64,000 bases of DNA from Actinomycetota bacterium (GCA_020444505.1 JAHLKU010000002.1:50921-114920); one strand, 5' to 3'; shown: positions 116 to 11,877, numbered from the stretch's first letter. Program-made: numbers and translations. The notes: generated by a model not told the origin, from the sequence alone.

Positions 116-124
116 GGTGACCCC

Positions 125-1645
125 GTGTCGTTGACGTTCGATTGGCTCGCCAAGCGGGCCGCCCTGTCGGCCGGCAAGACCGCCCTCGTGGATGCCGCCA
201 CCGGCAGGGAGTACACCTACCGGGAGTTCGACGACCGCGCCGGCCGCCTCGCCCGGGTGTGGCGGGAGGAGTGGGGCCTCGCCCCCGGCGACCGGGTCGC
301 CATCCTGGCGCACAACTCGTCGGAGTACTTCGAGGCGCTGTTCGCCGCCGCCAAGGCGGAGGTGATCCTGGTGCCGCTCAACTGGCGGCTGGCGGTGCCC
401 GAATTGGAGGGCATCGTCGCCGACGCTGCGCCGCGCGGCATCGTACACGACGCCGAGTTCGCCGACACCGCCGGCGCGCTGCTGGGAGGCATCGAGGGCG
501 GACGGCGGATCGCCTACGGCGGCGCCGTCCCCGACGGTGCGGCGGACTACGAGGCGGCGCTGGCCGCCTCGGCGCCCATGGAGATGGCGCCGCGCCCCGA
601 CGGCGACACCTGGTACATCCTCTACACGGCGGGCACCACCGGCCGCCCCAAGGGCGTCATCCAGACCTTCGAGATGGCGCTGGCCAACTACCTGAACATC
701 GGCATCCCGATCGGCCTCACCCAGGACGACACATCGCTGAACCTGCTGCCGACGTTCCACTCCGGCGGGCTCAACCTGTACGCCATCCCCACGTTCCTCG
801 CCGGAGGGACGGCGATCGTCCAGAAGGTGTTCGACCCGGCCGAGACGTTCGAGTTGATCAAGGACCGGACCACGCTGTTCTTCGGCGTGCCGGCCGTGTA
901 CCTGTTCCTGAGCCAGCACCCCGACTTCGACACCGCCGACCTGTCGGGCGTCCGGTCGTGGGCGTGCGGTGGGGCGCCGATGCCGGTGCCGCTGCTGGAG
1001 AGGTACGCGGCGCGGGGCATCGACATCCGCCAGGGGTTCGGCATGACCGAGACCGGGCCCACCGTGTTCCTGGTGGACGAGGCGCACGCGGTGTCCAAGG
1101 CGGGGTCGGTGGGGCTGCCGCAGATGTTCGTTGAGGTGCGCATCGTGGACCGGGACGGCAACGACGTCCCTCCGGGGCAGAACGGGGAGTTGCTGATTCG
1201 CGGCCCCGGCGTCACCCCCGGCTACTGGAAGCTGCCGGAGGTGACGGCGGAGTCCATCGAGGACGGGTGGCTCCACTCCGGCGACGTCGCGGTGTGCGAC
1301 GAGGACGGCTACTACGCCATCGTGGACCGGTGGAAGGACATGTACATCTCGGGCGGCGAGAACGTGTACCCGGCCGAGGTGGAGAACGTCCTCTACGGCC
1401 ACCCCGCTGTGGCCGAGGCGGCCGTCATCGGGGTGGCGAGCGAGCGGTGGGGCGAGGTCGGGCGGGCCGTCGTGGCGCTGGCCGAGGGCGCCGAGGCCAC
1501 CGCCGAGGACCTGATCGCCCACTGCGCCGAGCGCCTCGCCAAGTTCAAGGTGCCGGCGTCGGTGGTGTTCGTGGACGCGTTGCCCCGCAACGCAGCGGGC
1601 AAGGTGCTGAAGCAGGACCTGCGGGCCGACCATGGCGCTGCCTGA
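125..1645 (+). CDS. AMP-dependent acyl-CoA synthetase/ligase (long-chain fatty acid-CoA ligase family)
   Basis: 506-aa ORF with a GTG start after a GAGGTGA RBS. It carries the AMP-binding signature YTAGTTGRPKGV and a C-terminal KVLK motif. Confidence 0.9.
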   Translation: MSLTFDWLAKRAALSAGKTALVDAATGREYTYREFDDRAGRLARVWREEWGLAPGDRVAILAHNSSEYFEALFAAAKAEVILVPLNWRLAVPELEGIVADAAPRGIVHDAEFADTAGALLGGIEGGRRIAYGGAVPDGAADYEAALAASAPMEMAPRPDGDTWYILYTAGTTGRPKGVIQTFEMALANYLNIGIPIGLTQDDTSLNLLPTFHSGGLNLYAIPTFLAGGTAIVQKVFDPAETFELIKDRTTLFFGVPAVYLFLSQHPDFDTADLSGVRSWACGGAPMPVPLLERYAARGIDIRQGFGMTETGPTVFLVDEAHAVSKAGSVGLPQMFVEVRIVDRDGNDVPPGQNGELLIRGPGVTPGYWKLPEVTAESIEDGWLHSGDVAVCDEDGYYAIVDRWKDMYISGGENVYPAEVENVLYGHPAVAEAAVIGVASERWGEVGRAVVALAEGAEATAEDLIAHCAERLAKFKVPASVVFVDALPRNAAGKVLKQDLRADHGAA

Positions 1646-2021
1646 GCCCGGCGCCGCCTTCACCCGGCGGCGCACCTTCACCCAGGGCGACTTCGACCGG
1701 TTCGCCGGGCTGTCGGGCGACGACAACCCCATCCACGTCGATGCGGAGTACTCGGCGGCGGCGGCGTTCGGCAGGCCGGTGGCGCACGGCATGTTCCTGT
1801 ACTCCTGCCTGTGCGGGCTGCTGGCCGAGGCGTTCCCCGGCGCCGTGCAGCGACGCCAGGACCTGAAGTTCCCGGCGCCCACCTTCACCGGCGAGCAGAT
1901 GACGCTGCGGGCCGAGGTCTCCTCGTCGTCGCCCGGCGAAGTGGTGGTGGCCACCGAGGTGACACGCGCCGACGGCACCGTCACCGCCACCGGGTCGGCC
2001 GTGCTCCGGGTGGCGTCGTGA
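1632..2021 (+). CDS. MaoC-like (R)-specific enoyl-CoA hydratase, hotdog fold
   Basis: 129 aa; FTQGDFDRFAGLSGDDNPIHVD...HGM is the MaoC dehydratase signature. It overlaps the upstream stop. Confidence 0.8.
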   Translation: MALPEPGAAFTRRRTFTQGDFDRFAGLSGDDNPIHVDAEYSAAAAFGRPVAHGMFLYSCLCGLLAEAFPGAVQRRQDLKFPAPTFTGEQMTLRAEVSSSSPGEVVVATEVTRADGTVTATGSAVLRVAS

Positions 2022-2023
2022 GC

Positions 2024-2776
2024 ATGGTGGCCGCCTCCGTGCAGGGCCCGGTGGGGCTGATCGAACTGCAGCGGCCCGAACGCCACAACAGCCTGGTGCC
2101 CGAGTTGCTGGAGGACCTGCTCGCCGCCCACCGGGAGATGGCCGACGCCGGGGTGGGAGCGGCGGTGCTGGCGGCGGCCGGGCCCACGTTCTCCACCGGC
2201 GGCGACATCAAGGGCATCATGGGCGCCGACGACACGGTGGCCAACGCGGCGCGCCTGGTGGGCCTCCTCAACGAGGTGATCCTGGCCATGGTGGGCGGCC
2301 CGGTGCCGATGGTGGGCGCCGTCCACGGCGTGGTCACCGGCGGGTCGATCGGCCTGGTGCTGGCGTGCGACCACGTGGTGATGGGCTCACAGGTGACGAT
2401 GCGCCCCTGGTACGCCGCGGTCGGCTTCGCCCCCGACGGAGGCTGGACCGCCCTGCTGCCGGAGCGCATCGGCTCGCTGCGGGCCCGGAGCATCCTGCTC
2501 ACCGACGCCACCGTCTCCGCCGCCGAGGCGCTGCAGTGGGGCATCGCCGACGAGGTGGTGCCCGCACCGCGGGTGCGCGAGCGCGCCCTGGCCGCCGCCG
2601 CCCGCATCGCAGGCGGCAAGGCCGGCACCCGGGCGGTGATCCGCCGCCTCGCCGGGCCCGATCTGGAGGCGCTGGCCGCCCGGCTCGAGGCCGAGCGGCA
2701 GGCGTTCCTGGAACTGGTCGTTGGCGACGAGGCCCGGGACGGCATGGACCGATTCCTGCGGGGGGACCTGACGTGA
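2024..2776 (+). CDS. enoyl-CoA hydratase/isomerase (crotonase family)
   Basis: Start ATG at 2024, which is Met72 of track ORF 1811..2776. The crotonase fold shows IELQRPERHNSL...FSTGGDIKG. Confidence 0.85.
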   Translation: MVAASVQGPVGLIELQRPERHNSLVPELLEDLLAAHREMADAGVGAAVLAAAGPTFSTGGDIKGIMGADDTVANAARLVGLLNEVILAMVGGPVPMVGAVHGVVTGGSIGLVLACDHVVMGSQVTMRPWYAAVGFAPDGGWTALLPERIGSLRARSILLTDATVSAAEALQWGIADEVVPAPRVRERALAAAARIAGGKAGTRAVIRRLAGPDLEALAARLEAERQAFLELVVGDEARDGMDRFLRGDLT

Positions 2777-3177
2777 GGCACGCCGACACGTTCTCCCTGC
2801 GTTTGGGCGACTCGGCCACCCGGGTGCGTTCGTTCACCGCCGCCGACATCGAGGGCTATCGGGACCTCTCGGGCGACCCGGGCCTGGGCTTCGGGGACGG
2901 CGCCGGGGGCGTGCCGGGCCCGCTGCTGGCCGGCATGATCTCCGACCTGCTCGGCACCACGCTGCCGGGGCTGGGGACGATGTGGATGAAACAGTCCCTG
3001 GAGTACGGCGGCTCGGCGCCGGTGGGCGCCGAGGTGACCGCCGAGGTGACGATCACCCGCATGGTCCCCGAGAAGGGCCTCGTCTACCTCGACTCGGCAT
3101 GCCGGGTGGGCGGCGAGACGGTGGTGGCGGGCTCCACCCTGGTCATGGTCCCGAACCTGGGCGAGCGGGCGACATAG
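2773..3177 (+). CDS. MaoC/hotdog-fold dehydratase domain protein
   Basis: GTG start overlapping the upstream TGA (GTGA). VRHADTFSLRLGD...LVMVPN shows a hotdog-like C-terminal pattern. The upstream part of track ORF 2365..3177 is an Arg-rich artefact. Confidence 0.7.
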   Translation: MRHADTFSLRLGDSATRVRSFTAADIEGYRDLSGDPGLGFGDGAGGVPGPLLAGMISDLLGTTLPGLGTMWMKQSLEYGGSAPVGAEVTAEVTITRMVPEKGLVYLDSACRVGGETVVAGSTLVMVPNLGERAT

Positions 3178-3249: not shown

Positions 3250-5574
3250 CTACGACAACGCGATCACCATCGCCGTGCCGTCGATGCGGCGGGTGGGCAG
3301 CGCGCCGACCTCCTCGCCCTCGGCCAGTTCGAGGCGGACCTCCTCGATGCCCTGCAACTCGCCCTGGACGTCGGCGATGGCCAGCTGCTCCAGGATGCGG
3401 TGGCGCAGGATCGAGGTGAGGTGGCGGACACCGAAGCGCGGCTGCCACTGGTCCACCAGGTGATCGACGATGGCCGGGTCCCAGGTGAGCGTGTAGCCCT
3501 GCAACTCGGCGGCGCCCTCCAGGCCGTCGAGTTGCCGCTCCAGGATGACCCGGATGTCGTCCTGGTCGAGCGCCTCGAACACCACGAAGTCGATGTTGCG
3601 GCCCAGGAACTCCTCACGGAACCCGCGGCGCCGCAGGTCGTCCATCACGCTGTCGCGGGTCACCCGCGGCGTCCCCGACCCCGCCGTGTTCGCCTCCTGC
3701 CCCGGCGGGGCGAAGCCGATCGGCCCTCCGCCGGCCTCGTAGGTGGTGCCGGCGTTGGTGGTGAACACGATGAACGCCCGCCGGAAGTCGAGCAGGTTGT
3801 CGTCGGTGTCGTTGACCCGGCCCTCGTCGAGGATCTGCAGCAGCAGGTCGGCGATGGCCGGGTTGGCCTTCTCGATCTCGTCGAACAGGACCACGCACTC
3901 GGGCATGTCGCGGATCTTGGACAGCAGGCCGCCCTCGCCGCGGGCGTAGCCCAGGTAGCCGCGGGGCACGCCGAGCAACTGGTTGGCGATGACGCCCTTG
4001 GCGTCGATGCCGCGGCCGGCGATGGTGTTGCAGTCGATGCGGAGCAGCGCCTCCCGCCCCCCGCCGAGCAGCTTGGCGAGTTGCTTGGCGGTCTCGGTCT
4101 TGCCGACGCCGGTGGGCCCCCCGAAGAAGAAGATGCCCTGCGGCTCGCCCTTCTTGCCCCAGCCGGCGCTGAGGCCGGCGACGAACGACTCGGCGATCTT
4201 CCGCAGCGCCCCGTCCTGGCCCACGATCTTCGCCTGGAGATGCTCCAGCACCTTCTCGATGGTCAGCGCCTCGGGCCGCACCAGGCCGTGGCCGACGGCG
4301 TCCTCGAGCGCCTCCTGGATGGCGGCCTCGGTGAGCACGGTGGCCTCCGGGTCGTCGATGCTGGTGAGGGCGCACGCCTCGTCGAGGATCTGGATGGCCT
4401 TGTCGGGCTGGTACCGGGTGGGGAGGTGCTCGTCGGTGAGGTCGACGGCCTTCTCCAGCATCTCGTCGGGCACCGTGAGCGGGGCGTAGTGGGCCTCCAG
4501 CCGGGGGCGCCGCGCCTCCAGGATGCGGATGGTGGCCTCGCGCGACGGCGGGTCCACCTTCAGCACCCCGAAGCGCCGCTCCAGGGCGCGGTCGGGGGCG
4601 ATGTGGTGGCGGTACTCGGCGATCGTGGTGGCGCCGATGATGGTGATCGTGCCGCGGCCCAGCGCCTGCTTGAACGCTTCGTTGGCGTCGGAGAAGGCGG
4701 TGCGCTGGTGCATGCCGCTCGACAGCAGCGAGTGCACCTCGTCCACGAACATCAGCACCTTGGGGCTGGCCTCCAGCACCTTGATGAGCGCCGACACCCG
4801 CTTGTCGTACTCGCCGACGACGCCCGCGCCGGCCCGCAGGAACGACGGCGACAACTCGAACACGTCGCAGTCGCGCAGGCGGGGGTCGATGGTCTCGTCG
4901 CCGATGAGCAGGCGGCGGGCGAACTCCAGCACCAGGGCGGTCTTGCCGGTGCCGGGGTGGCCGGTGACGATCACGTTGCGCCGCTTCATCTTCAGCAGCG
5001 TCTTCTGCAGGCGGCGCAACTCCACGTCCATCTCGACCACCGACCCGGCGGGCGGCTCGCCCTCGGTGAGCATGCGGCCGTACGACGAGAGCGCTTCCAG
5101 GGCCTCGGCGCGCGCCCCCGACGACCGCCACTCGCCCGTCTCGGCGCCCCCGGCCTCCGCCGACGATGCCTTCGCGGCCGGCGGCCTGGGCGGCGCCTCG
5201 TGGCCGCGCACGACCTTGGCGGCCCGCTCGACGTACTTGGCCGGCAGCCCGGCGCCGACCAGGAAGCCCTTCCCGGCGTCGCTCTCCAGCAGCGCCGTCA
5301 TCAGCTCGTCGATGGTGACGAAGTCGTCGGCGTCCAGCACCTCGAACACCGGCTCGAGCCCGGCGTCCACGTCCACCGAGTCGGGGACCTTCTTGCGGCG
5401 GGTCTTGAGGTCCTCCATGTAGGTCGCGAGCTCGGGGATCGACGAGGACATCTCGCCGACCGCGTACGCCGCCGCCATCAGGACGTCGGCGGTGAGCTTG
5501 CCGTCCTCGCCGACGAAGCGTTTGGCGAGGTCGACGGCCTCCCGGGCCTCCGGTGAGAAGTGGTCGAATGCCAT
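3250..5574 (-). CDS. ClpA/ClpC-like double AAA+ ATPase (Clp_N-like N-terminal domain, two nucleotide-binding domains, IGF loop)
   Basis: Start at MAFDHF, which is Met23 of the 796-aa ORF. D1 has Walker A GHPGTGKT and Walker B FVDEVH. D2 has GGPTGVGKTE and VVLFDEIEKA. A GPIGFAPPG loop resembles the ClpP-docking IGF/IGL loop. Confidence 0.85.
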   Translation of the reverse strand: MAFDHFSPEAREAVDLAKRFVGEDGKLTADVLMAAAYAVGEMSSSIPELATYMEDLKTRRKKVPDSVDVDAGLEPVFEVLDADDFVTIDELMTALLESDAGKGFLVGAGLPAKYVERAAKVVRGHEAPPRPPAAKASSAEAGGAETGEWRSSGARAEALEALSSYGRMLTEGEPPAGSVVEMDVELRRLQKTLLKMKRRNVIVTGHPGTGKTALVLEFARRLLIGDETIDPRLRDCDVFELSPSFLRAGAGVVGEYDKRVSALIKVLEASPKVLMFVDEVHSLLSSGMHQRTAFSDANEAFKQALGRGTITIIGATTIAEYRHHIAPDRALERRFGVLKVDPPSREATIRILEARRPRLEAHYAPLTVPDEMLEKAVDLTDEHLPTRYQPDKAIQILDEACALTSIDDPEATVLTEAAIQEALEDAVGHGLVRPEALTIEKVLEHLQAKIVGQDGALRKIAESFVAGLSAGWGKKGEPQGIFFFGGPTGVGKTETAKQLAKLLGGGREALLRIDCNTIAGRGIDAKGVIANQLLGVPRGYLGYARGEGGLLSKIRDMPECVVLFDEIEKANPAIADLLLQILDEGRVNDTDDNLLDFRRAFIVFTTNAGTTYEAGGGPIGFAPPGQEANTAGSGTPRVTRDSVMDDLRRRGFREEFLGRNIDFVVFEALDQDDIRVILERQLDGLEGAAELQGYTLTWDPAIVDHLVDQWQPRFGVRHLTSILRHRILEQLAIADVQGELQGIEEVRLELAEGEEVGALPTRRIDGTAMVIALS

Positions 5575-5682
5575 GTCTGCTCCCTTGCCCTCGGCGCCCG
5601 CCCGCGACCGGCCACCCGGCCGGGGCGGGACGTCTCCCATCGTCGGTCCACGGCTCTGCCCGCCACCAGGGGAGAACGTCCC

Positions 5683-7404
5683 CTACGGCCGGGAACCACC
5701 CGGTTCGCCGGTCCGGATCACCCGGTACCCGGCCCGTGCCAGCAGCTGGGGCACCGACCGGGCGGCGAGGCGGTCCAGGTCCTTGATCTCCTCGGCCTCC
5801 GGCCCGGTGAGCCGGTCCCACGGCACCAGGTAGGGGCTCGTCTTCTTTTCGGGGTCGCGGGGGCCGTCCTTCCACCCGTCGCTGCGCCGCTGCCGCACGA
5901 ACCGCTCGTGCTCGAAGCGGGCGAGCTCCTCGATCTCGTCGTCGGTGAGCGGCTCCGGCGGCGCGTCCCAATCGTCCAGCGGGGCCACCCCGCACCCGAT
6001 CCGGCGCAGCTTCTCGCCGAGATGGGCTGCCTGCGCCCGGTTGGAGCGCCGCAGGCTCTCGGGGAGGTGCTCCCACGCCATCAGGGACGGGTCGTCCGGT
6101 CGGGCACCGGTGGACAGGCGCAGGTCCACGTAGGCGGCGTGGATCTCCCTGGCGAGCCGCTCGCCGAGGCCGGCGAGGAGGATGTCGGCGTGCAGCAGCC
6201 GGTCGGGGATGAGGAAGGGGTGGATCGCCCTGGTGCCCGACGCGCCGGAGGTGAGCATCGCCGCCATCCCGGCCCAGTGGCCGAGTGCCACCACGATCGG
6301 CGTGCCCGGCAGTTGCTCGGCCAGCGACAGGGTGATGGCGATCGCCGTGGTGTCCTCGTCGAGGCACACGAACACCAGGCGGCACGACGCCAGCCGCTCG
6401 ACGTCGGCGGGCACGAGCGGGTCGGGGCCGCCGATGCGCTCCACCTCGGCGCCGGCGCGCAGTTGCGGGAACCGGGCGTGGAGGCGCTCGACGACGCCCT
6501 CCTCCTCGGCGATGACCACGCGCACCGGGTCGCGAGCGTGGCGGCGGCGCACCCGGGCGGCCTCCGACACCACGGCGGCGGCCACGTCGTTGCCCCCGAC
6601 CACGCCGATCGCGGCCGGGCCGTCCCCGGCCAGGAACCCGGCGTGCTCCTCCAGCATGATGGCCGCCGCCTCCTCGGCGACGTTGAAGAACTCGAGGCGG
6701 AATCCCTCCGCCTGTGGGCCGGCGAGCGTCTCGGTGCGCAGGATGCGGCACAACTGCGGGTCGCGGATGTGGGCCAGGCACACCACCGGGTTCTCGGCCG
6801 ACTCCAGGTAGACGGTGCGGGCGGCGAGCGCCACCTCGGCGCTGACCTCGTCGGCGCCGGCCAGCACCACGATGTGGTCCGCCGCCTCGGCGCGGGCCTC
6901 CCGCAGCACGTCGGGGTCCCTGGCGTCCCCGACCACCACCGACACCTTCGACCGCCCGATCGAGGCGACGGCCTCCTCGTCGAGGTCCAGGTCGACGGCC
7001 ACGACGTCGTGGCCCTGTTCCACCAGGCGCTCGACCAGTTCCAGGCCCAGCCAGCCGAGGCCGGCCACCACCACGTGGCCGCTGCGGCGCTTGAGGCGCC
7101 AGCGATCGATGCGCGACCGGAAGATCTCCACCAGGGCCCGCCCCAGGGCGTAGGCGGTGGCGGCGGGGGCGGCGAACCGGGCGATCTCGAGTGTGATCGG
7201 CGGCGACGGGCCGGCCGCGTTCCCGGATTCGACGGTGAACAACTGCAGCGACAGGTAGGCGATGTCCACGGCCGAGCGCTCGCTGCCGAGCCGTGTGTGG
7301 AAGCCCAGGTACCCGAGCACGAAGGCGGTGGCCGCCAGCAGGGCGACGAGGGGCCACCCCATCAGCCTCCGCATCCAGCGCACCCGATTCCCGGTCCCGG
7401 CCAT
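5683..7404 (-). CDS. 2TM cation-channel pore + tandem RCK/TrkA-N domains + C-terminal RyR domain protein
   Basis: 573 aa. TM1 is WPLVALLAATAFVLGYLGF. A pore-helix and filter-like segment AYLSLQLFTVESGNAAGPSP is NaK/CNG-like rather than GYG-containing. A TM2 follows, then Rossmann motifs VVVAGLGWLGLE and IGVVGGNDV. The C-terminal block is LRRSNRAQAAHLGEKL...EHERFVRQRRSDGWKDGPRDPEKKTSPYLVPWDRL, matching the RyR repeat (RyR domain, PF02026). Confidence 0.8.
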   Translation of the reverse strand: MAGTGNRVRWMRRLMGWPLVALLAATAFVLGYLGFHTRLGSERSAVDIAYLSLQLFTVESGNAAGPSPPITLEIARFAAPAATAYALGRALVEIFRSRIDRWRLKRRSGHVVVAGLGWLGLELVERLVEQGHDVVAVDLDLDEEAVASIGRSKVSVVVGDARDPDVLREARAEAADHIVVLAGADEVSAEVALAARTVYLESAENPVVCLAHIRDPQLCRILRTETLAGPQAEGFRLEFFNVAEEAAAIMLEEHAGFLAGDGPAAIGVVGGNDVAAAVVSEAARVRRRHARDPVRVVIAEEEGVVERLHARFPQLRAGAEVERIGGPDPLVPADVERLASCRLVFVCLDEDTTAIAITLSLAEQLPGTPIVVALGHWAGMAAMLTSGASGTRAIHPFLIPDRLLHADILLAGLGERLAREIHAAYVDLRLSTGARPDDPSLMAWEHLPESLRRSNRAQAAHLGEKLRRIGCGVAPLDDWDAPPEPLTDDEIEELARFEHERFVRQRRSDGWKDGPRDPEKKTSPYLVPWDRLTGPEAEEIKDLDRLAARSVPQLLARAGYRVIRTGEPGGSRP

Positions 7405-7517
7405 GCTCCCCGCGTCCCGTCGCGTTCTGTCAGGCTAGAGAAACGCGAGGGGCCGATGGCCTCTGGACGCCGATGGCTCCCGCCGGGGAGCATGGGCGGG
7501 CAGAGCGGGGAGGACCG
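7405..7517. promoter_or_regulatory. shared divergent promoter region between the two RyR-domain genes
   Basis: 113-bp gap between the divergent starts. A GGAGGA RBS sits 5 nt before ATG 7518. Confidence 0.4.
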
Positions 7518-10001
7518 ATGACGGAGCCGTGCAGCAGGCCGTGGCTCGAAGGCCAGGTGACGGAGTACGCCCGTCTGTACCCGATCTACGAGCGGTACGG
7601 GCGGGTGCTCGAAGACGTGCTGCGGGCGGCGGCACGGCGGCATGCGCCGCTCGCCATCGTCCAGACCAGGGCCAAGAAGGTGCCGTCGTTCGCCGAGAAG
7701 TGCCTCCGGAAATGCCACAAGTACCCGATGCCGGCCCATCAACTGACCGACCTGTGCGGCGCCCGCCTCATCGCCAGGACGGCGTCGGAGGTGAAGGCGG
7801 TCCGTGCGTTCCTGCACGAGCACCTGGAGATCGACTGGGAGAACAGCGACGACGTCTCGGAGCGGCTCTCGTGGTCGGAGTTCGGCTACCGCTCGATCCA
7901 CTACGTGGTGGCGCTGCGCCGGGGCGACGGCCTGGTGGACGTGGACGACGACCTGTACGGCTTCACCTGCGAGTCCCCGGAGTGCCCCGGCGTGGGGACG
8001 TTCCACCCCTTCAAGGCCGAGATCCAGGTGCGGACGCTGGCGGAGCACGCCTGGGCCGACTTCGCCCACGACATCACCTACAAGGGCGCGTTCACCCTGC
8101 CCGACACCTGGCTGCGGGAGATCGCCCTGATGGCCGCCGACCTCGAGGACGTCGACCGCACCGTGGAGCGGATCGAGGAGGGCCTGCGCACCTACGCGGC
8201 GTCGTACGGCGCCTACCTCTCGCCCGACGACCTCGCCGCCGAGATCGAGACGCTGTCCACCGTGCTCTCCTTCGACCCGGGTAACGCCGATCTCGCCTGG
8301 CGCATCGGCAAACTGGCGATGACGGCCGGCGATTGGGACCGGGCGGTCGAGGTGATGGGCCCGTTCGTGGACCCCGACGCCCCGGGCGATGCGATGCAAC
8401 CACTGCTGCGGGACCTGGGGGTGGCGTTGCGCAAGGCGGGCGACGTGGCCCTGGGCAGGAGGTACCTGGAGGCCGCGGTGGAGGCCGATCCCACCGACGC
8501 CGACGCCGTCGCCTCGCTGGCCGGCACCTGGCGGGGTGAGGACGACGACCGGGCCCACGACCTGTACCGCAGGGCGTTCGAGGTGGACCCCACCGACTAC
8601 TACCCGCTGCTCAACTACGTGGACGGCGAGATCGAGCGCTCGGGGACCACCGGGGTCCTCGACGTGCTGGCCCCGATGGCGTCGCAGGCCATGGCGCGGT
8701 GCCGCGCCCACGTGGACGTGGGCATCAACGTGCCGTGGTCGCTGTCGTCGCTCGCCAAGTTCCACCTGCTGCTCGGCGACCCGTTCGCCGCACTGGAGTG
8801 GTACGCGCTGGCGATCCGCTCCGCACCGGCGGCGTTCGCCATCCCCGGCCTGGATCGCATCCGCGGCGCCGGGATCGAGGGCCTGGAGTGGTCCGACCGG
8901 TTGCTGACGCTGGCCGCCGCGGCGCGCTTCGGCGACGAGGCGGCGCTGGAGCGCGTGCGGGCGCTGGCCACGCCGGGCGCCGACCCCCTGGAGGGCCCGG
9001 TGACGATCTTCGCCGGCGGCACCGACCCGGCGTTCGCCGAGCAGATGGAGGGCTACCGCTCGCTGGTGGAGGAGGCCGTCGCCGGCCTGTCGGGCACCGT
9101 CGTCTCGGGCGGCACCCGCCAGGGCGTGTGCGGGATGGTGGGCGCGGCCGGCGTGCCCCACCGGGGACGGGTCCGCACGGTGGGCTACCTGCCGTCCGGC
9201 GTCCCGGAGGACGCCGACCCGGACGACCGCTACGACGAGATCCGGGAGACCGCCGGGCAGGGGTTCACGCCGCTCGACCCGCTGCAGAACTGGATCGACG
9301 TGGTGGCCTCGGGCATCGACCCGGCGGAGGTGATCGTGGTGGGCCTCGGCGGCGGGCGGATCGCCGCCGCCGAGTACCGCATCGCGCTGGCGCTCGGGGC
9401 CACGGTCGGCATCGTGGAGGGGAGCGGGCGGGAGGCCTCGCGCCTGCTGGCCGACCCCCGTTGGAAGGACGCGCCCACGCTGGTGCCGCTGCCGGCCGAC
9501 CCCCACACGGTGCGGGCCTTCGTCACCCGGCCCACCGCGGCCCTGTCCGACGGCGACCGCGAAGCGGTGGCGCGGGGCATGCACGACGTGTACCGCCGGG
9601 ACATCGCCGCAGCGGCCGCCGACGACCCGGCCCGGCGCCCGTGGGAGGCCCTCTCGGACGACCTCCGGCAGAGCAACCTGCACCAGGCAGACCACATCGG
9701 CGCCAAGGTGGCCGAGGTCGGCTGCCGGGTGGTGGCGGCCGCCGACGCCGACCCCGGTTTCGAGTTCACCGCCGCCGAGGTGGAGCGGCTGTCCGAGATG
9801 GAGCACGGCCGGTGGACCGCCGACCGGCTTCGCTCCGGATGGCGGTGGGGCCCCGAGCGCGACCCGGGCGCCCGGCGGAGCCCCCACCTGGTGCCGTGGT
9901 CCCGCCTCCCCGACGACATCCGCGAGTACGACCGGGCGTTCGTGCGCCGCATCCCCGCACTGCTCGGCACGGTCGGCCTCGGCGTGGCCCGGGAGGGCTA
10001 G
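7518..10001 (+). CDS. multidomain protein: N-terminal RelA/SpoT-type nucleotidyltransferase (alarmone synthetase) - TPR-like repeats - SLOG/LOG-like Rossmann domain - C-terminal RyR domain
   Basis: Start is Met76 of track ORF 7293..10001, after a GGAGGA RBS. All RelA_SpoT synthetase motifs are intact: RAKKVPSFAEK, DLCGARLIAR, GYRSIHYVV and EIQVRTLAEHAWADFAHDITYK. The SLOG/LOG-like motifs are SGGTRQGVCGMVGAAG and VGLGGGRIAAAEY. The C-terminal block LRQSNLHQADHIGAKV...EHGRWTADRLRSGWRWGPERDPGARRSPHLVPWSRL is homologous to the C-terminus of the divergent neighbour. Confidence 0.85.
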   Translation: MTEPCSRPWLEGQVTEYARLYPIYERYGRVLEDVLRAAARRHAPLAIVQTRAKKVPSFAEKCLRKCHKYPMPAHQLTDLCGARLIARTASEVKAVRAFLHEHLEIDWENSDDVSERLSWSEFGYRSIHYVVALRRGDGLVDVDDDLYGFTCESPECPGVGTFHPFKAEIQVRTLAEHAWADFAHDITYKGAFTLPDTWLREIALMAADLEDVDRTVERIEEGLRTYAASYGAYLSPDDLAAEIETLSTVLSFDPGNADLAWRIGKLAMTAGDWDRAVEVMGPFVDPDAPGDAMQPLLRDLGVALRKAGDVALGRRYLEAAVEADPTDADAVASLAGTWRGEDDDRAHDLYRRAFEVDPTDYYPLLNYVDGEIERSGTTGVLDVLAPMASQAMARCRAHVDVGINVPWSLSSLAKFHLLLGDPFAALEWYALAIRSAPAAFAIPGLDRIRGAGIEGLEWSDRLLTLAAAARFGDEAALERVRALATPGADPLEGPVTIFAGGTDPAFAEQMEGYRSLVEEAVAGLSGTVVSGGTRQGVCGMVGAAGVPHRGRVRTVGYLPSGVPEDADPDDRYDEIRETAGQGFTPLDPLQNWIDVVASGIDPAEVIVVGLGGGRIAAAEYRIALALGATVGIVEGSGREASRLLADPRWKDAPTLVPLPADPHTVRAFVTRPTAALSDGDREAVARGMHDVYRRDIAAAAADDPARRPWEALSDDLRQSNLHQADHIGAKVAEVGCRVVAAADADPGFEFTAAEVERLSEMEHGRWTADRLRSGWRWGPERDPGARRSPHLVPWSRLPDDIREYDRAFVRRIPALLGTVGLGVAREG

Positions 10002-10003
10002 CG

Positions 10004-10360
10004 ATGGAAGACGAGACGACGATCATGTTCTTCTCCTACGACCTGGTGAGCAAGTTCGGGTTCGGGGACGGGGACATGCTGTGGGACCTCATCGAGGAGC
10101 GCGATCTCGGGGTCGACCACCACGACCTCTTGATCGCGGTGGTCGAGCGCCTGCTGGTGCCGAGGCTCGATGAGGAGGTGGAGACCTACACGATCGGGGC
10201 GACCCTCCACAACCCGATCCGGGCCAGGACGGTGGACGGCGAGGAGGCCGGCGCCTCCTCGGTGTTCACCCCGGAATCGGTGGGCATCGCCGTCGACGAC
10301 ATCCTCGCGATCGCCGCCGAGCTGCCCCGTGTGGAGCCGGACCCGGACGAGTGGGCATGA
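10004..10360 (+). CDS. small acidic hypothetical protein (118 aa)
   Basis: ATG 3 nt after the upstream stop. Strong GC3 bias. The product MEDETTIMFFSYDLVSKFGFGDGDMLWDLIEERD... is very acidic. Confidence 0.7.
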   Translation: MEDETTIMFFSYDLVSKFGFGDGDMLWDLIEERDLGVDHHDLLIAVVERLLVPRLDEEVETYTIGATLHNPIRARTVDGEEAGASSVFTPESVGIAVDDILAIAAELPRVEPDPDEWA

Positions 10361-10680
10361 CCGCCGACTGGGGCGCCTTCTACCGGGCGGTGTGCGCCTC
10401 GGCGGGGTCGCTGCTCACCGGCCTCGACGACGAGGCCCGGGAGGCGATCGCCGAGGCTGCGGGAGCCTTCGACGTCTTCTGGTCGGTTTCGATGCTCGAC
10501 ACGTTCACCGACTTCGCTCCGGAGAGCACTCGCACCGGCGTGGAGTTGGCCCTCGAGGTGTGGAGGGAGAACGTGCTGGAGGCGTTCGGCGACCTGCTCG
10601 ATCTGGACCCGGCGGCGGTGGGCATCGACCCGCGTGCGATCGGGCCGCTCGTGGCGGCTGCCGAGGGGGAGGACGGCTAG
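10357..10680 (+). CDS. small acidic hypothetical protein (107 aa)
   Basis: ATGA overlap with the upstream stop, implying translational coupling. Strong GC3 bias. Product is MTADWGAFYRAVCASAG... Confidence 0.7.
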   Translation: MTADWGAFYRAVCASAGSLLTGLDDEAREAIAEAAGAFDVFWSVSMLDTFTDFAPESTRTGVELALEVWRENVLEAFGDLLDLDPAAVGIDPRAIGPLVAAAEGEDG

Positions 10681-10690
10681 GGTCGCCGCC

Positions 10691-11179
10691 ATGCGCAGCC
10701 CGCTCGAACAGCGAGTGATCGGCCACCTCGATGCGCTCGGGGCCCGGTACGAGGTGCTGGACTGCGACCCCGCCCTGGCCGACACCGCCGCGTTCTGCGA
10801 GCACTACGGCTACGGCCTCGACGTGTCGGCCAACGCCATCGTCATCGCCTCCCGCCGCCCGCCGGGGGAGGTGTGCGTGTGCCTGGGCCTGGCGACCACG
10901 AGGCTGGACGTGAACCGCCGGGTGAAGGGCTTGATGGGCGTCTCCAAGCTGTCGTTCGCCCCGGCGGAGGCCACCGTGGAGGCCACCGGCATGGAGATCG
11001 GCGGGGTGACGCCGTTCGGCCTCCCCGACGGCCTGCCGGTGTACGTGGACGCCCGCATCCCGGCGCTGGAGCAGTGCATCGTTGGCGGCGGCAGCCGGGC
11101 GATCAAGCTGCTGGTGGACCCCGAGGTGTTCACCCGGATGCCGGGCGTCGAGGTGGTCGAGGGCCTGGCAACGGAGTAG
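10691..11179 (+). CDS. ybaK: YbaK/ProX-family aminoacyl-tRNA deacylase (Cys-tRNA(Pro) deacylase-like)
   Basis: Start at Met20 (MRSPLEQRV) of the track ORF. Carries the YbaK/EbsC-type motifs ...SANAIVIASRRP...GGVTPFGLP. Confidence 0.75.
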   Translation: MRSPLEQRVIGHLDALGARYEVLDCDPALADTAAFCEHYGYGLDVSANAIVIASRRPPGEVCVCLGLATTRLDVNRRVKGLMGVSKLSFAPAEATVEATGMEIGGVTPFGLPDGLPVYVDARIPALEQCIVGGGSRAIKLLVDPEVFTRMPGVEVVEGLATE

Positions 11180-11196: not shown

Positions 11197-11877
11197 TCAG
11201 GGAGCGATGCCCTCGGCGCCGCTGGAGCCGATCCCCGACAGCAGCGCCCCCAGCCCCCATTCGAACTGGACGTCCGAGGCCACAGAGCCGACATGGGGCC
11301 GTGCGCTCCGGGTGACGGTGGGGTATGCGGCCGGGTCGAGCCGCCGGATGAGCTCGTCCCATTGGGCTGCGTACGCCTCCGGAGGCTGCAGGCGGCTCCT
11401 GGGGACCTCCCAGACCACGAAGCCGATCGTGTACGACAGGCAGGAGAAGAACGAGCGAACGCTCTCCTCGGGGCCCACTCCGTCGTGCTGCAGTTCTGTG
11501 AGCAGGTTCTCGAGGTGATCGAAGACGGCGGGGATCGTGACGCGCCCCCCCGCGAGGAGCCGGGTCAGCGCCGGATGAGCGAGTGCGATGCGCCTGAACG
11601 ACCGGAAGTACTCGGCGAGCCGTTCGAGGCCGCGGCCGGGAGGGACCTCGAGGTCCACGAACAGGGACGTCGCCATGCGGTCGAGCAGGTCCTCCTTGTC
11701 GCGGACGTAGCTGTAGAGGGTCATGGTCCCCACCCCGAGGCGGGCGCCGATCTTGGCCATGGACAGCCCGTCGAGCCCCACCTCGTCGACGATCGCGATG
11801 GCCGCATCGACCACCTGGTCGGCGCTGAGGCTCGGTGGACGGCCTGCCCGATGCGGTCCGGGGGCCCCGGCGTTCAT
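11197..11877 (-). CDS. TetR-family transcriptional regulator
   Basis: Start MNAGAPGP after a GGAGG RBS; MSTV at 11901 is an alternative start. The HTH is LSMAKIGARLGVGTMTLYSYVRDKEDLL. The long N-terminal extension in the track is an artefact. Confidence 0.8.
   Translation of the reverse strand: MNAGAPGPHRAGRPPSLSADQVVDAAIAIVDEVGLDGLSMAKIGARLGVGTMTLYSYVRDKEDLLDRMATSLFVDLEVPPGRGLERLAEYFRSFRRIALAHPALTRLLAGGRVTIPAVFDHLENLLTELQHDGVGPEESVRSFFSCLSYTIGFVVWEVPRSRLQPPEAYAAQWDELIRRLDPAAYPTVTRSARPHVGSVASDVQFEWGLGALLSGIGSSGAEGIAP

Follow-up and report, generated by a model that had tools for sequence, protein, structure and literature searches.

Why would a predicted alarmone synthetase and a channel-like membrane protein, encoded back to back in a bacterium, carry the same rare C-terminal domain? 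This question is posed by a locus at positions 3250-10680 of a 64,000-nucleotide stretch of DNA from an Actinomycetota bacterium (GCA_020444505.1 JAHLKU010000002.1:50921-114920), a stretch that we call the window. An earlier reading of this DNA, referred to below as the original prediction, described two RyR-domain genes that diverge from a shared control region of 113 bp, and the gene coordinates confirm this arrangement: a plus-strand gene (7518-10001) encodes an 827-residue protein with RelA_SpoT, TPR, SLOG, and RyR matches in Pfam, a minus-strand gene (5683-7404) encodes a 573-residue channel-like membrane protein recognized by Pfam matches to TrkA_N and RyR and by an AlphaFold2 model, and the 113-bp spacer lies between them (7405-7517). 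On the minus strand, the channel gene is followed by a gene for a Clp-type double-AAA+ ATPase, and on the plus strand, the synthetase gene is followed by genes for two small acidic proteins and by ybaK. The region has a local guanine-plus-cytosine (GC) content of 70-75% and holds six real genes, all of which are genuine coding regions as judged by their third-position GC of 0.93-0.97. To judge by sequence comparison, the window locus is a reduced copy of a widespread nucleotide-signalling module. We are confident that its genes form a functionally linked module, and we give a somewhat better than even chance to the idea that RyR sensors for one shared ligand drive both the synthetase and the channel.

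The same RyR domain on an enzyme and a channel-like protein

We found that both proteins carry the same rare domain, as had been proposed, with scores above the Pfam PF02026 gathering score of 27.4 bits: 42.8 bits for the C-terminal domain of the synthetase protein (residues ~709-827, nt 9642-9998, plus strand) and 32.0 bits (E = 1.5e-7) for that of the channel (residues 444-566, nt 5707-6075, minus strand). The residue-level likeness of the two C-terminal blocks also stood, at 42% identity over 124 residues (E = 2e-22), which establishes true homology and rules out low-complexity similarity. In the Protein Data Bank (PDB), the RyR domains match Repeat12 of the animal ryanodine receptors RyR1, RyR2, and RyR3 (E = 4.6e-17 to 1e-11), as well as 3NRT from B. 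thetaiotaomicron.

The ligands of the RyR-domain family are adenine, ADP-ribose (ADPR), or cyclic ADPR (cADPR), and phage RyR-domain proteins (RyDEP) bind 2'cADPR as well as 3'cADPR, one of them cleaving these molecules (PMC13232231, a 2026 preprint). In RyDEP, the catalytic dyad consists of H75 and D117, while W78 is stacked against the adenine and H100 touches the phosphates; fold and ligand residues are common to Repeat12, with RyDEP being a homodimer and Repeat12 a tandem pair (PMC13232231). Using DyoEdafos gene 78 as the RyDEP reference for alignment, we placed H75 at H763 of the synthetase protein, W78 at W766, D117 at D805, and H100 at Ser788. These positions fall in a predicted ligand pocket of RyR domain 2 (9801-9941, plus strand), which comprises EHGRW (with His763 and Trp766), SPHLVPW, and Asp805 in EYDRAF. 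Both window proteins have equivalents of H75 and D117; where RyDEP has W78, the synthetase protein has Trp and the channel has Phe. Hence, the window proteins share with RyDEP and Repeat12 the PF02026 family, the His and Asp of the dyad, and an aromatic residue at the adenine-stacking position, whereas the phosphate-binding His100 of RyDEP is replaced by Ser; the predicted RyR pocket is, from this alignment, largely, though not fully, conserved in both. The setting differs as well, as RyDEP is a free-standing viral sponge or glycosidase, whereas the RyR domain of the window is a C-terminal module of a host enzyme and a host channel, where it is predicted to bind its ligand.

Linkage of the module across genomes

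The 827-residue protein has 586 homologue clusters, the best 120 of which are nearly all full-length at 44-75% identity. We compared gene neighbourhoods in the best 80 of 291 genome loci (cited by L numbers), taking one genome per species and clustering the neighbouring open reading frames (ORFs) within 10 kb of the RelA-type gene; 34 of the 80 loci, with at least 5 kb on both sides, form a fully flanked subset. The bacteria among the 80 belong to Actinomycetota, Gemmatimonadota, Chloroflexota, Bacteroidota, Planctomycetota, Pseudomonadota, Verrucomicrobiota, Nitrospirota, and Acidobacteriota, and to the firmicute family Syntrophomonadaceae, and the archaea to Bathyarchaeia, Methanomicrobia, Halobacteriota, Thermoplasmatota, and Methanobacterium.

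A check attached to the original prediction, namely whether the two RyR genes are neighbours in other genomes, came out in its favour: a gene for a channel with transmembrane (TM), TrkA_N, and RyR parts accompanies the RelA-type gene in 26 of the 80 loci, in many bacterial phyla, and in 12 of the 34 fully flanked ones. We saw this adjacency in Actinomycetota, Gemmatimonadota, Chloroflexota, Bacteroidales, Planctomycetota, Pseudomonadota, and Syntrophomonadaceae, with the channel gene often lying directly upstream of the RelA-type gene on the same strand at a gap of 20-45 bp. By our own estimate, which assumes one channel copy per genome at a random place in 4 Mb, chance would yield ~0.4 such loci in 80, and the linkage is therefore real. 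The facultative pairing and the orientation that varies from locus to locus would be in keeping with functionally unrelated genes that merely have a domain in common, but the excess over expectation and the recurrence in many phyla make such chance neighbourhood extremely improbable.

Other partners recur alongside the channel. The commonest one, on which the original prediction is silent, is a NUDIX hydrolase gene (~140 residues), found in 50/80 loci (25/34 fully flanked), mostly on the same strand and directly adjacent, typically 0-60 bp from the RelA-SLOG-RyR gene (in L005-L080; for example, L010:9529-9996 and L035:12489-12908), and the synthetase-NUDIX core also occurs in archaea. The counts for the Clp-like ATPase are 19/80 (11/34), for a YbjN/TY-Chap1 chaperone-like protein beside the ATPase 13/80 (6/34), for WD40 proteins 17/80 (10/34), and for DUF4062-NACHT STAND NTPases 15/80 (11/34), and only 4 of the 34 fully flanked loci are without NUDIX, channel, and ATPase alike. 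The NUDIX gene is absent from the entire actinobacterial clade of the window (with L001-L004, L089, and L090). The NUDIX proteins of the relatives look more like the MutT/NudG/NudI class than like ADPR pyrophosphatases. MutT and NudG are Nudix enzymes of E. coli that have been reported to hydrolyse (p)ppGpp, and the likeness would fit a brake on the synthetase product, although we take it as a lead only. In most relatives, the NUDIX protein would be a likely signal-degrading brake, one that was probably lost in the window. As a side observation, a TIR_2 gene lies directly after the RelA-type gene in L001 (12092-12976, minus strand; E = 2e-24); it and the patatin gene of L089 described below add to the variable genes of effector type that surround the core.

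At least two RyR sites were present in 23 of the 80 loci, and L030 and L037 hold three each; the RyR domain seems to be a mark of the components of one circuit. A third type of RyR protein, 879 residues long, combines an uncharacterised N-terminal region with the P-loop NTPase motif GTPGSGKS and a tandem of two RyR stretches; it forms a cluster in five loci and is encoded in L068 (7838-10477) directly upstream of the RelA-SLOG-RyR gene.

For the link between enzyme and channel, the original prediction had offered either direct RyR-RyR contact or a common ligand. In the former case, synthetase and channel would dock via an RyR-RyR heterodimer that places alarmone synthesis at the channel, an idea that finds precedent in the RyDEP homodimer and the Repeat12 tandem pair (PMC13232231): the functional unit of the family is a two-fold pair, and each window protein has a single RyR repeat only. 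The clustering of several distinct RyR-bearing proteins around the RelA-type gene also speaks for it. However, upon comparing the RyR domains of the two protein types, we obtained a cross-type identity of 39.5% within a locus versus 38.9% between loci, with a protein's own partner rarely its closest match, and hence no sign of partner-specific co-evolution. Furthermore, about two thirds of the synthetase genes have no RyR partner nearby, so that homodimers must suffice. We thus regard docking as unlikely. The common-ligand half of the proposal is the one to which the data lean, because a co-evolution signal is missing and most synthetase genes are without an RyR partner.

The 827-residue protein as a putative sensor-controlled alarmone synthetase

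The domain order and the conserved residues of the 827-residue protein point to a sensor-controlled alarmone synthetase of the small-alarmone-synthetase (SAS) type, a reading that we infer from comparisons. All domains lie on the plus strand: the RelA_SpoT synthetase domain at residues 50-190 (nt 7665-8087; PF04607, 55.5 bits against a cut-off of 27), a TPR or TPR-S block assigned by Pfam at residues 231-367 (nt 8208-8618), and a SLOG domain of the LSDAT_prok type at residues 494-647 (nt 8997-9458), whose PF18171 score of 23.2 bits lies below the cut-off of 25.4, ahead of the C-terminal RyR domain. Across the family, RelA_SpoT and RyR were detected in 28 of 28 members and LSDAT_prok in 24 of 28 (best E = 4.4e-9). 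In the alignment of these 28 sequences, which has a mean column identity of 57%, no variation occurs in the synthetase motifs DLCGAR, GYRSIHY, and EIQVRT, and the Gly-rich SLOG motifs SGGTxxGxxGxVG and GGGxxxxxE are conserved.

As expected of an SAS, the catalytic domain has the synthetase motifs and comes without an HD domain or the C-terminal domains of long RelA/SpoT homologues; neither Pfam nor NCBIfam gave a match to HD, TGS, or ACT domains in the 827-residue protein. In the PDB, the synthetase domain matched, by sequence, only SASs of the RelQ/RelP type (2be3, 3l9d, 5ded, and 6fgk), and no solved toxic SAS (toxSAS) structure was matched. RelQ/RelP, with which all synthetase motifs are common, is the SAS group closest to the window catalytic domain. 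The arrangement of an SAS followed by TPR matches that of Treponema denticola Tde-SAS (DsRel), in which the TPR part brakes synthesis (PMC10434055). FaRel, in turn, has a small-alarmone-hydrolase (SAH) brake (PMC7229694), to which the adjacent NUDIX of the window's relatives can be likened. Based on these likenesses, the product of the RelQ/RelP-like domain would be a purine nucleotide in pyrophosphorylated form, belonging to the (p)ppGpp or (pp)pApp class, the TPR block would probably restrain the synthetase domain as in Tde-SAS, and the SLOG/LSDAT and RyR domains may act as the sensors that control its activity.

The RyR part is not universal in the wider family. Some archaeal synthetase proteins, from Thermoplasmatota and Bathyarchaeia (L069, L071, and L074), end at about residue 670 and are without the RyR domain. 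As the contigs of L069 and L071 run well beyond the synthetase gene, the RyR module is an optional addition. A scan of viral contigs returned two weak partial matches only, and from this near-absence it follows that the module is not phage-borne.

A pore-loop channel architecture with RCK and RyR domains

The label of channel that the minus-strand RyR gene had been given is upheld by a confident structural model. The AlphaFold2 model of the 573-residue protein (predicted local distance difference test, pLDDT, 84.3; predicted template modelling score, pTM, 0.77) shows, in this order, TM1, short pore-loop helices, TM2, two Rossmann domains, and the RyR domain. On the minus strand, TM1, pore-loop region, and TM2 span residues 4-94 (nt 7123-7395, from the model), with LFTVESG at the filter position (7222-7242, from sequence and alignment), followed by TrkA_N/RCK1 with its GxGxxG motif at residues 111-223 (nt 6736-7074; Pfam TrkA_N, E = 1.4e-19) and a second Rossmann or RCK-like domain, seen in the model, at residues 265-400 (nt 6205-6612). 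The top PDB match in Foldseek is GsuK (E = 2e-10 to 8e-10, with up to 517 aligned columns including the pore), and the matched GsuK entries include structures with NAD and with ADP bound. Further matches are the TrkA ring, MthK, Slo, and, at the C-terminus, RyR3 Repeat12.

In structural terms, the model thus displays the two TM helices, the pore helix, and the tandem RCK domains of an RCK-gated channel. With GsuK, MthK, and TrkA it shares two TM helices and a pore loop joined to two Rossmann/RCK domains with GxGxxG, and it differs from them by its LFTVESG filter and the extra RyR domain. The model therefore points to a pore-loop channel, although membership of the K+ channel family proper fails on the filter. 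A likeness to the filter of bacterial sodium channels (LESG against TLESW) was considered and dropped, since Glu occupies this position in only 14 of 37 family members.

An identical copy of the 573-residue protein is on record from an Actinobacteria metagenome-assembled genome (MAG). Diverged homologues stand in other settings: in L084 (8997-12201), a TM-TrkA_N-RyR homologue is divergent from an operon with TIR_2, E2, FHA, YukD-Ubl, E1, JAB, and Prok-RING genes, and a SLATT_1 gene overlaps its 3' end, making this an independent context in which an RyR channel occurs with a nucleotide-signal generator. Of two other diverged channel homologues, one lies directly after ClpS and one is without informative neighbours.

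A proposed shared-ligand mechanism and its alternatives

The observations on which we build are the domain content, the conservation of catalytic and ligand residues, the fold, and the recurrent linkage, and from them we infer product, ligand, channel gating, and biological role. We suggest that the channel would be a tetrameric pore similar to GsuK, equipped with an RCK gating ring and an RyR domain of its own and gated through RyR, and possibly through RCK too, by an adenine-based ligand that the RyR domain of the synthetase may also bind. This common ligand could be an NAD-derived signal of the ADPR type or the synthetase's own product. Perception of the signal would then lead to a burst of alarmone together with ion flux or membrane depolarisation.

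Several observations weigh against this model. The H100 position of RyDEP is Ser in both window proteins. A K+ selectivity filter of the TVGYG type is not present in the channel, which has LFTVESG where the family has a variable LFxLxSG consensus, with Glu at the filter position confined to the 14 of 37 members mentioned above; given this non-TVGYG, variable position, ion conduction by the channel is only predicted. The channel is absent near two thirds of the RelA-SLOG-RyR genes, and as some channel homologues also stand alone, the pairing is facultative. At 44-55% identity between phyla, the 827-residue core protein is unusually well conserved for a conflict gene. Within the 64 kb, no NUDIX, TIR, or other obvious generator or degrader of a signal was found, and the locus is set among ordinary genes for metabolism, regulation, and housekeeping. 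In PADLOC, no system was matched in the window, with matches at the domain level only, to the candidate families PDC-S33 and PDC-M37B. Lastly, members of the module are known from genes alone, and the best 80 loci are all from MAGs.

An alternative that keeps the same parts but changes their role is a housekeeping circuit for stress or energy state, as opposed to an anti-phage or conflict system, in which ordinary metabolites (NAD+/NADH, ATP/ADP, and ADPR), read by the SLOG, RyR, and RCK domains, would tune alarmone synthesis and cation flux for dormancy or for osmotic and energy homeostasis. The high cross-phylum conservation of the core protein, the RelQ/RelP-like catalytic domain, the GsuK-type channels solved with NAD and with ADP, the ordinary chromosomal setting of the window, and the essential absence of the family from viral contigs all speak for such a circuit, as does the precedent of Tde-SAS, a non-toxic SAS with TPR (PMC10434055). 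However, the neighbourhoods are variable and conflict-type genes are frequent in them (the DUF4062-STAND NTPases and WD40 proteins counted above, and occasionally TIR and patatin), the channel homologue in L084 stands beside TIR and SLATT genes, and the distribution is patchy, with archaea included. To our knowledge, RelA/SpoT homologues are rare in archaea. We count the domain matches to PADLOC candidate families, too, as a point for a conflict role. On balance, we consider the housekeeping circuit a doubtful but serious alternative, and sensing of a shared ligand by the two RyR domains is the reading that we prefer.

A Clp-type ATPase that may feed ClpP

The original prediction of a double-AAA+ Clp ATPase with an IGF-like ClpP loop was substantiated. 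The gene (3250-5640, minus strand) encodes two modules by Pfam (AAA, AAA_lid_9, AAA_2, and ClpB_D2-small), with D1 at nt 4339-4974 and D2 at nt 3334-4143, both on the minus strand, and in an alignment of 20 orthologues, the Walker A and B motifs are intact in both rings. The IGF tripeptide (residues 641-643, nt 3712-3720, minus strand) aligns with (I/L/V/T/G)-G-F at the same position in 20/20 orthologues, where this xGF tripeptide follows the TTNAG motif of D2 at the position of the ClpP-docking loop of ClpA and ClpC. As the orthologue N-termini align from M23 (MAFDHF, ATG at 5572-5574), the likely start is at 5574. The proposed 109-bp gap between channel and ATPase genes holds when measured from M23 and not when measured from the first ATG (5640), which lies 42 bp from the upstream stop.

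With ClpA and ClpC, the window ATPase has two AAA+ rings, Walker motifs, D2-small, and the xGF loop in common, and ClpP binding is predicted from these motifs. It differs in that no Clp_N domain was matched even at E <= 5 and in that NCBIfam scores lie far below the equivalog cut-offs (324.6 versus 993 for ClpA and 342 versus 1232 for ClpB, with ClpV likewise below). With ~65 residues between D1 and D2, there is no M-domain of ClpB length. In relatives, a YbjN-type chaperone normally accompanies the ATPase, and it is missing in the window. Close relatives, with a synthetase of 66-74% identity, have a minus arm of channel, 75-residue ORF, YbjN, and ATPase, whereas in the window the ATPase follows directly after the channel, without YbjN and the 73-75-residue ORF. 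The ClpC/ClpA-like ATPase, together with YbjN where present, may be an accessory unfoldase that probably feeds a component to ClpP, for remodelling or degradation. In L089 (7278-8109) and L090 (24-835), the RyR channel gene is separated from the ATPase gene by the YbjN/TY-Chap1 gene and the conserved 73-75-residue ORF; a patatin phospholipase gene (3687-4844, minus strand) comes after the ATPase in L089.

Small acidic proteins and ybaK as lineage-specific or bystander genes

The plus arm continues into small1 (10004-10360, plus strand; 118 residues, third-position GC 0.94) and small2 (10357-10680, plus strand; 107 residues, third-position GC 0.93), which are acidic as stated originally, with a pI of 4.05 each. 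Their translational coupling stands as regards the ATGA overlap between them, whereas only 2 bp (TAG-CG-ATG), instead of the 4 bp reported, separate small1 from the RelA-type gene. Pfam, NCBIfam, and PADLOC returned no match for either protein, and the two showed no similarity to each other.

For small1, we found 37 homologue clusters, in which the motifs KFGFxDGD and HNPIRA are invariant; every cluster comes from MAGs of actinobacterial or acidimicrobial origin. Small1 is adjacent to the synthetase in L003, whereas in L089 it follows a STAND NTPase at a distance of 4.5 kb, and in the L004 genome it stands, on another contig, beside an nSTAND1/NACHT-TPR-WD40 set without a RelA gene. In its behaviour, small1 resembles a small domain, so far unrecognised, that belongs to conflict-type neighbourhoods of actinobacteria. 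The family was also seen at L087:7035-7433 and L086:8001-8474, recurring beside STAND NTPase, TPR, and WD40 genes, and its confidently predicted fold had no solved or viral structural neighbour. For small2, a search among 1.84 billion representatives gave 22 matches at E <= 1e-3; in L004 and L089, a homologue comes immediately after the RelA-type gene, and small2 is the commonest gene at this place in the NUDIX-less clade. Small2 also matches a 5280-residue protein in 21 separate stretches and a 1149-residue protein in five (P0211 and P0212), which would mean that giant proteins contain repeats of a small2-like unit, or else that the matches stem from composition.

These two proteins had been placed, in the original prediction, as antitoxins of a toxSAS system, in which the role of toxin would fall to the RelA_SpoT protein and that of antitoxin to the small acidic proteins, small2 above all. 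Their acidity, the tight coupling by a 2-bp gap and then an ATGA overlap, and the position of small2 homologues directly after the synthetase in the NUDIX-less clade agree with this, as toxSAS operons are typically overlapping bicistrons (PMC7229694). However, homologues of small1 or small2 occur in 1-2 of the 80 loci, so that an antitoxin gene conserved beside the SAS across the family was not found, and the small proteins are confined to one actinobacterial clade, whereas the synthetase family extends across bacteria and archaea. Small1, moreover, is found away from RelA genes and beside STAND NTPases, as described; neither PADLOC nor Pfam gave an antitoxin match; and the synthetase had no sequence match to solved toxSAS structures. 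Compared with SAS and toxSAS proteins such as FaRel and CapRel, the window enzyme is a multidomain protein of 827 residues with its own regulatory domains, the added SLOG and RyR, and it has archaeal relatives and downstream small ORFs that are not conserved. We therefore see no support for the antitoxin assignment and judge a toxin-antitoxin system to be quite improbable. Being limited to one actinobacterial clade, small1 and small2 are lineage-specific accessories, not conserved components, and in the shared-ligand model they would likewise figure as clade-specific accessories.

The ybaK gene (10691-11179, plus strand; Pfam tRNA_edit, E = 1.3e-15), a YbaK-like tRNA-editing domain gene, had been counted as part of the plus arm. 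It is indeed present, adjacent, and possibly co-transcribed, lying outside the end of the locus at 10680, but with homologues in 0 of the 80 loci it does not belong to the system, and we treat it as a bystander, the part it would also have in the model.

The divergent spacer and the surroundings of the locus

Within the 113-bp spacer, CAGGCTAGA at 7430-7438 is invariant in the spacers of the window, L001, L003, and L004; its reverse complement is TAGCCT, which agrees with a -10 element of the form TANNNT that would serve the minus-strand gene. Spacer repeats also revealed a GC-rich palindrome-like motif, GGGGCCGATGGCCTCTGG, at 7447-7464, and the palindrome GGGnCGATCGGCCC is kept in four related spacers (aligned stretches L001:9442-9455, L003:1897-1912, and L004:9927-9950), occurring in the window as GGGGCCGATGGCC at 7447-7459. 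From this conservation, we regard the palindrome as a candidate operator. A second copy, GCCGATGGC, lies at 7469-7477, and a 17-nt inverted repeat (7396-7412 and 7484-7500) is 94% complementary. A scan for sigma-70 consensus promoters and terminators found nothing in a 72% GC actinobacterium, for which such a scan is uninformative. An upstream ORF of nine codons (7492-7521, MGGQSGEDR) has a TGA stop codon that shares bases, as ATGA, with the start of the RelA-type gene; the upstream ATG is kept in four loci, with a differing frame relation and, in L001, an in-frame extension.

Around the locus, a plus-strand metabolic cluster (116-3177) with acyl-CoA ligase-like, MaoC-like, crotonase-like, and second MaoC-like genes, of which the crotonase-like one was recognised by eye from its translation, lies just before the 3' end of the ATPase gene. 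After ybaK come a TetR-family gene (~11197-11850, minus strand) and, further downstream, an AI-2E transporter and a two-component system. The window contains no mobile-element or defence-island signature, no complete catalogued defence gene set (such as ThsA with ThsB) according to PADLOC, and, even at E <= 10, no relatives of the NUDIX, YbjN, WD40, or STAND partners anywhere in its 64 kb.

Relation to known systems and implications

The module resembles nucleotide second-messenger systems and regulated SASs and is a catalogued member of neither. Its logic is similar to that of Thoeris-like second-messenger defence, which combines a SLOG sensor with an effector, membrane pores, and signal-degrading hydrolases, and some relatives of the module have TIR; the window, by contrast, is without TIR or ThsA/ThsB, and its SLOG domain belongs to the LSDAT type and shares a polypeptide with a RelA_SpoT synthetase. 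Parts also overlap with animal TRPM2, an ADPR-gated channel with SLOG (MHR1-2) and a NUDT9-homology Nudix domain: an LSDAT SLOG, a Nudix partner, and a tetrameric cation-channel-like protein. To these TRPM2-like parts the module adds an RyR repeat, known from another animal Ca2+ channel; it differs in having its parts on separate genes and a pore of the RCK type, not the TRP type. An evolutionary link between module and TRPM2 may be suggested by these overlaps. A bolder version, in which RyR is the host receptor for a nucleotide messenger, be it derived from ADPR or the (pp)pApp/(p)ppGpp-class product of the fused synthetase, that directly gates a tetrameric RCK cation channel and simultaneously switches on the synthetase, strikes us as rather unlikely. 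The result would be a nucleotide-gated 'RyR channel' circuit of prokaryotes, whose parts (LSDAT-SLOG, Nudix, RyR repeat, and cation pore) would prefigure the animal channels TRPM2 and RyR, which are linked to ADPR and cADPR.

In a full-text literature search, we found no paper on cellular RelA-RyR or TrkA-RyR proteins, although the papers that defined LSDAT and TPR-S may already draw the architecture. These are reportedly Burroughs et al. 2015 (NAR) for SLOG/LSDAT and Burroughs & Aravind 2020 (J Bacteriol) for TPR-S.

Overall, the module is a comparative-genomic prediction from uncultured organisms, in which the RyR domain is part of two host proteins whose outputs can be read, one being an alarmone synthetase and the other a channel-like pore. 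Coming after the RyDEP finding, it offers a timely and testable hypothesis, namely that RyR domains may serve as receptors in host nucleotide signalling. If true, this would link alarmone chemistry to signalling of the NAD/ADPR type and would provide a prokaryotic context for the domains of animal TRPM2 and RyR channels.

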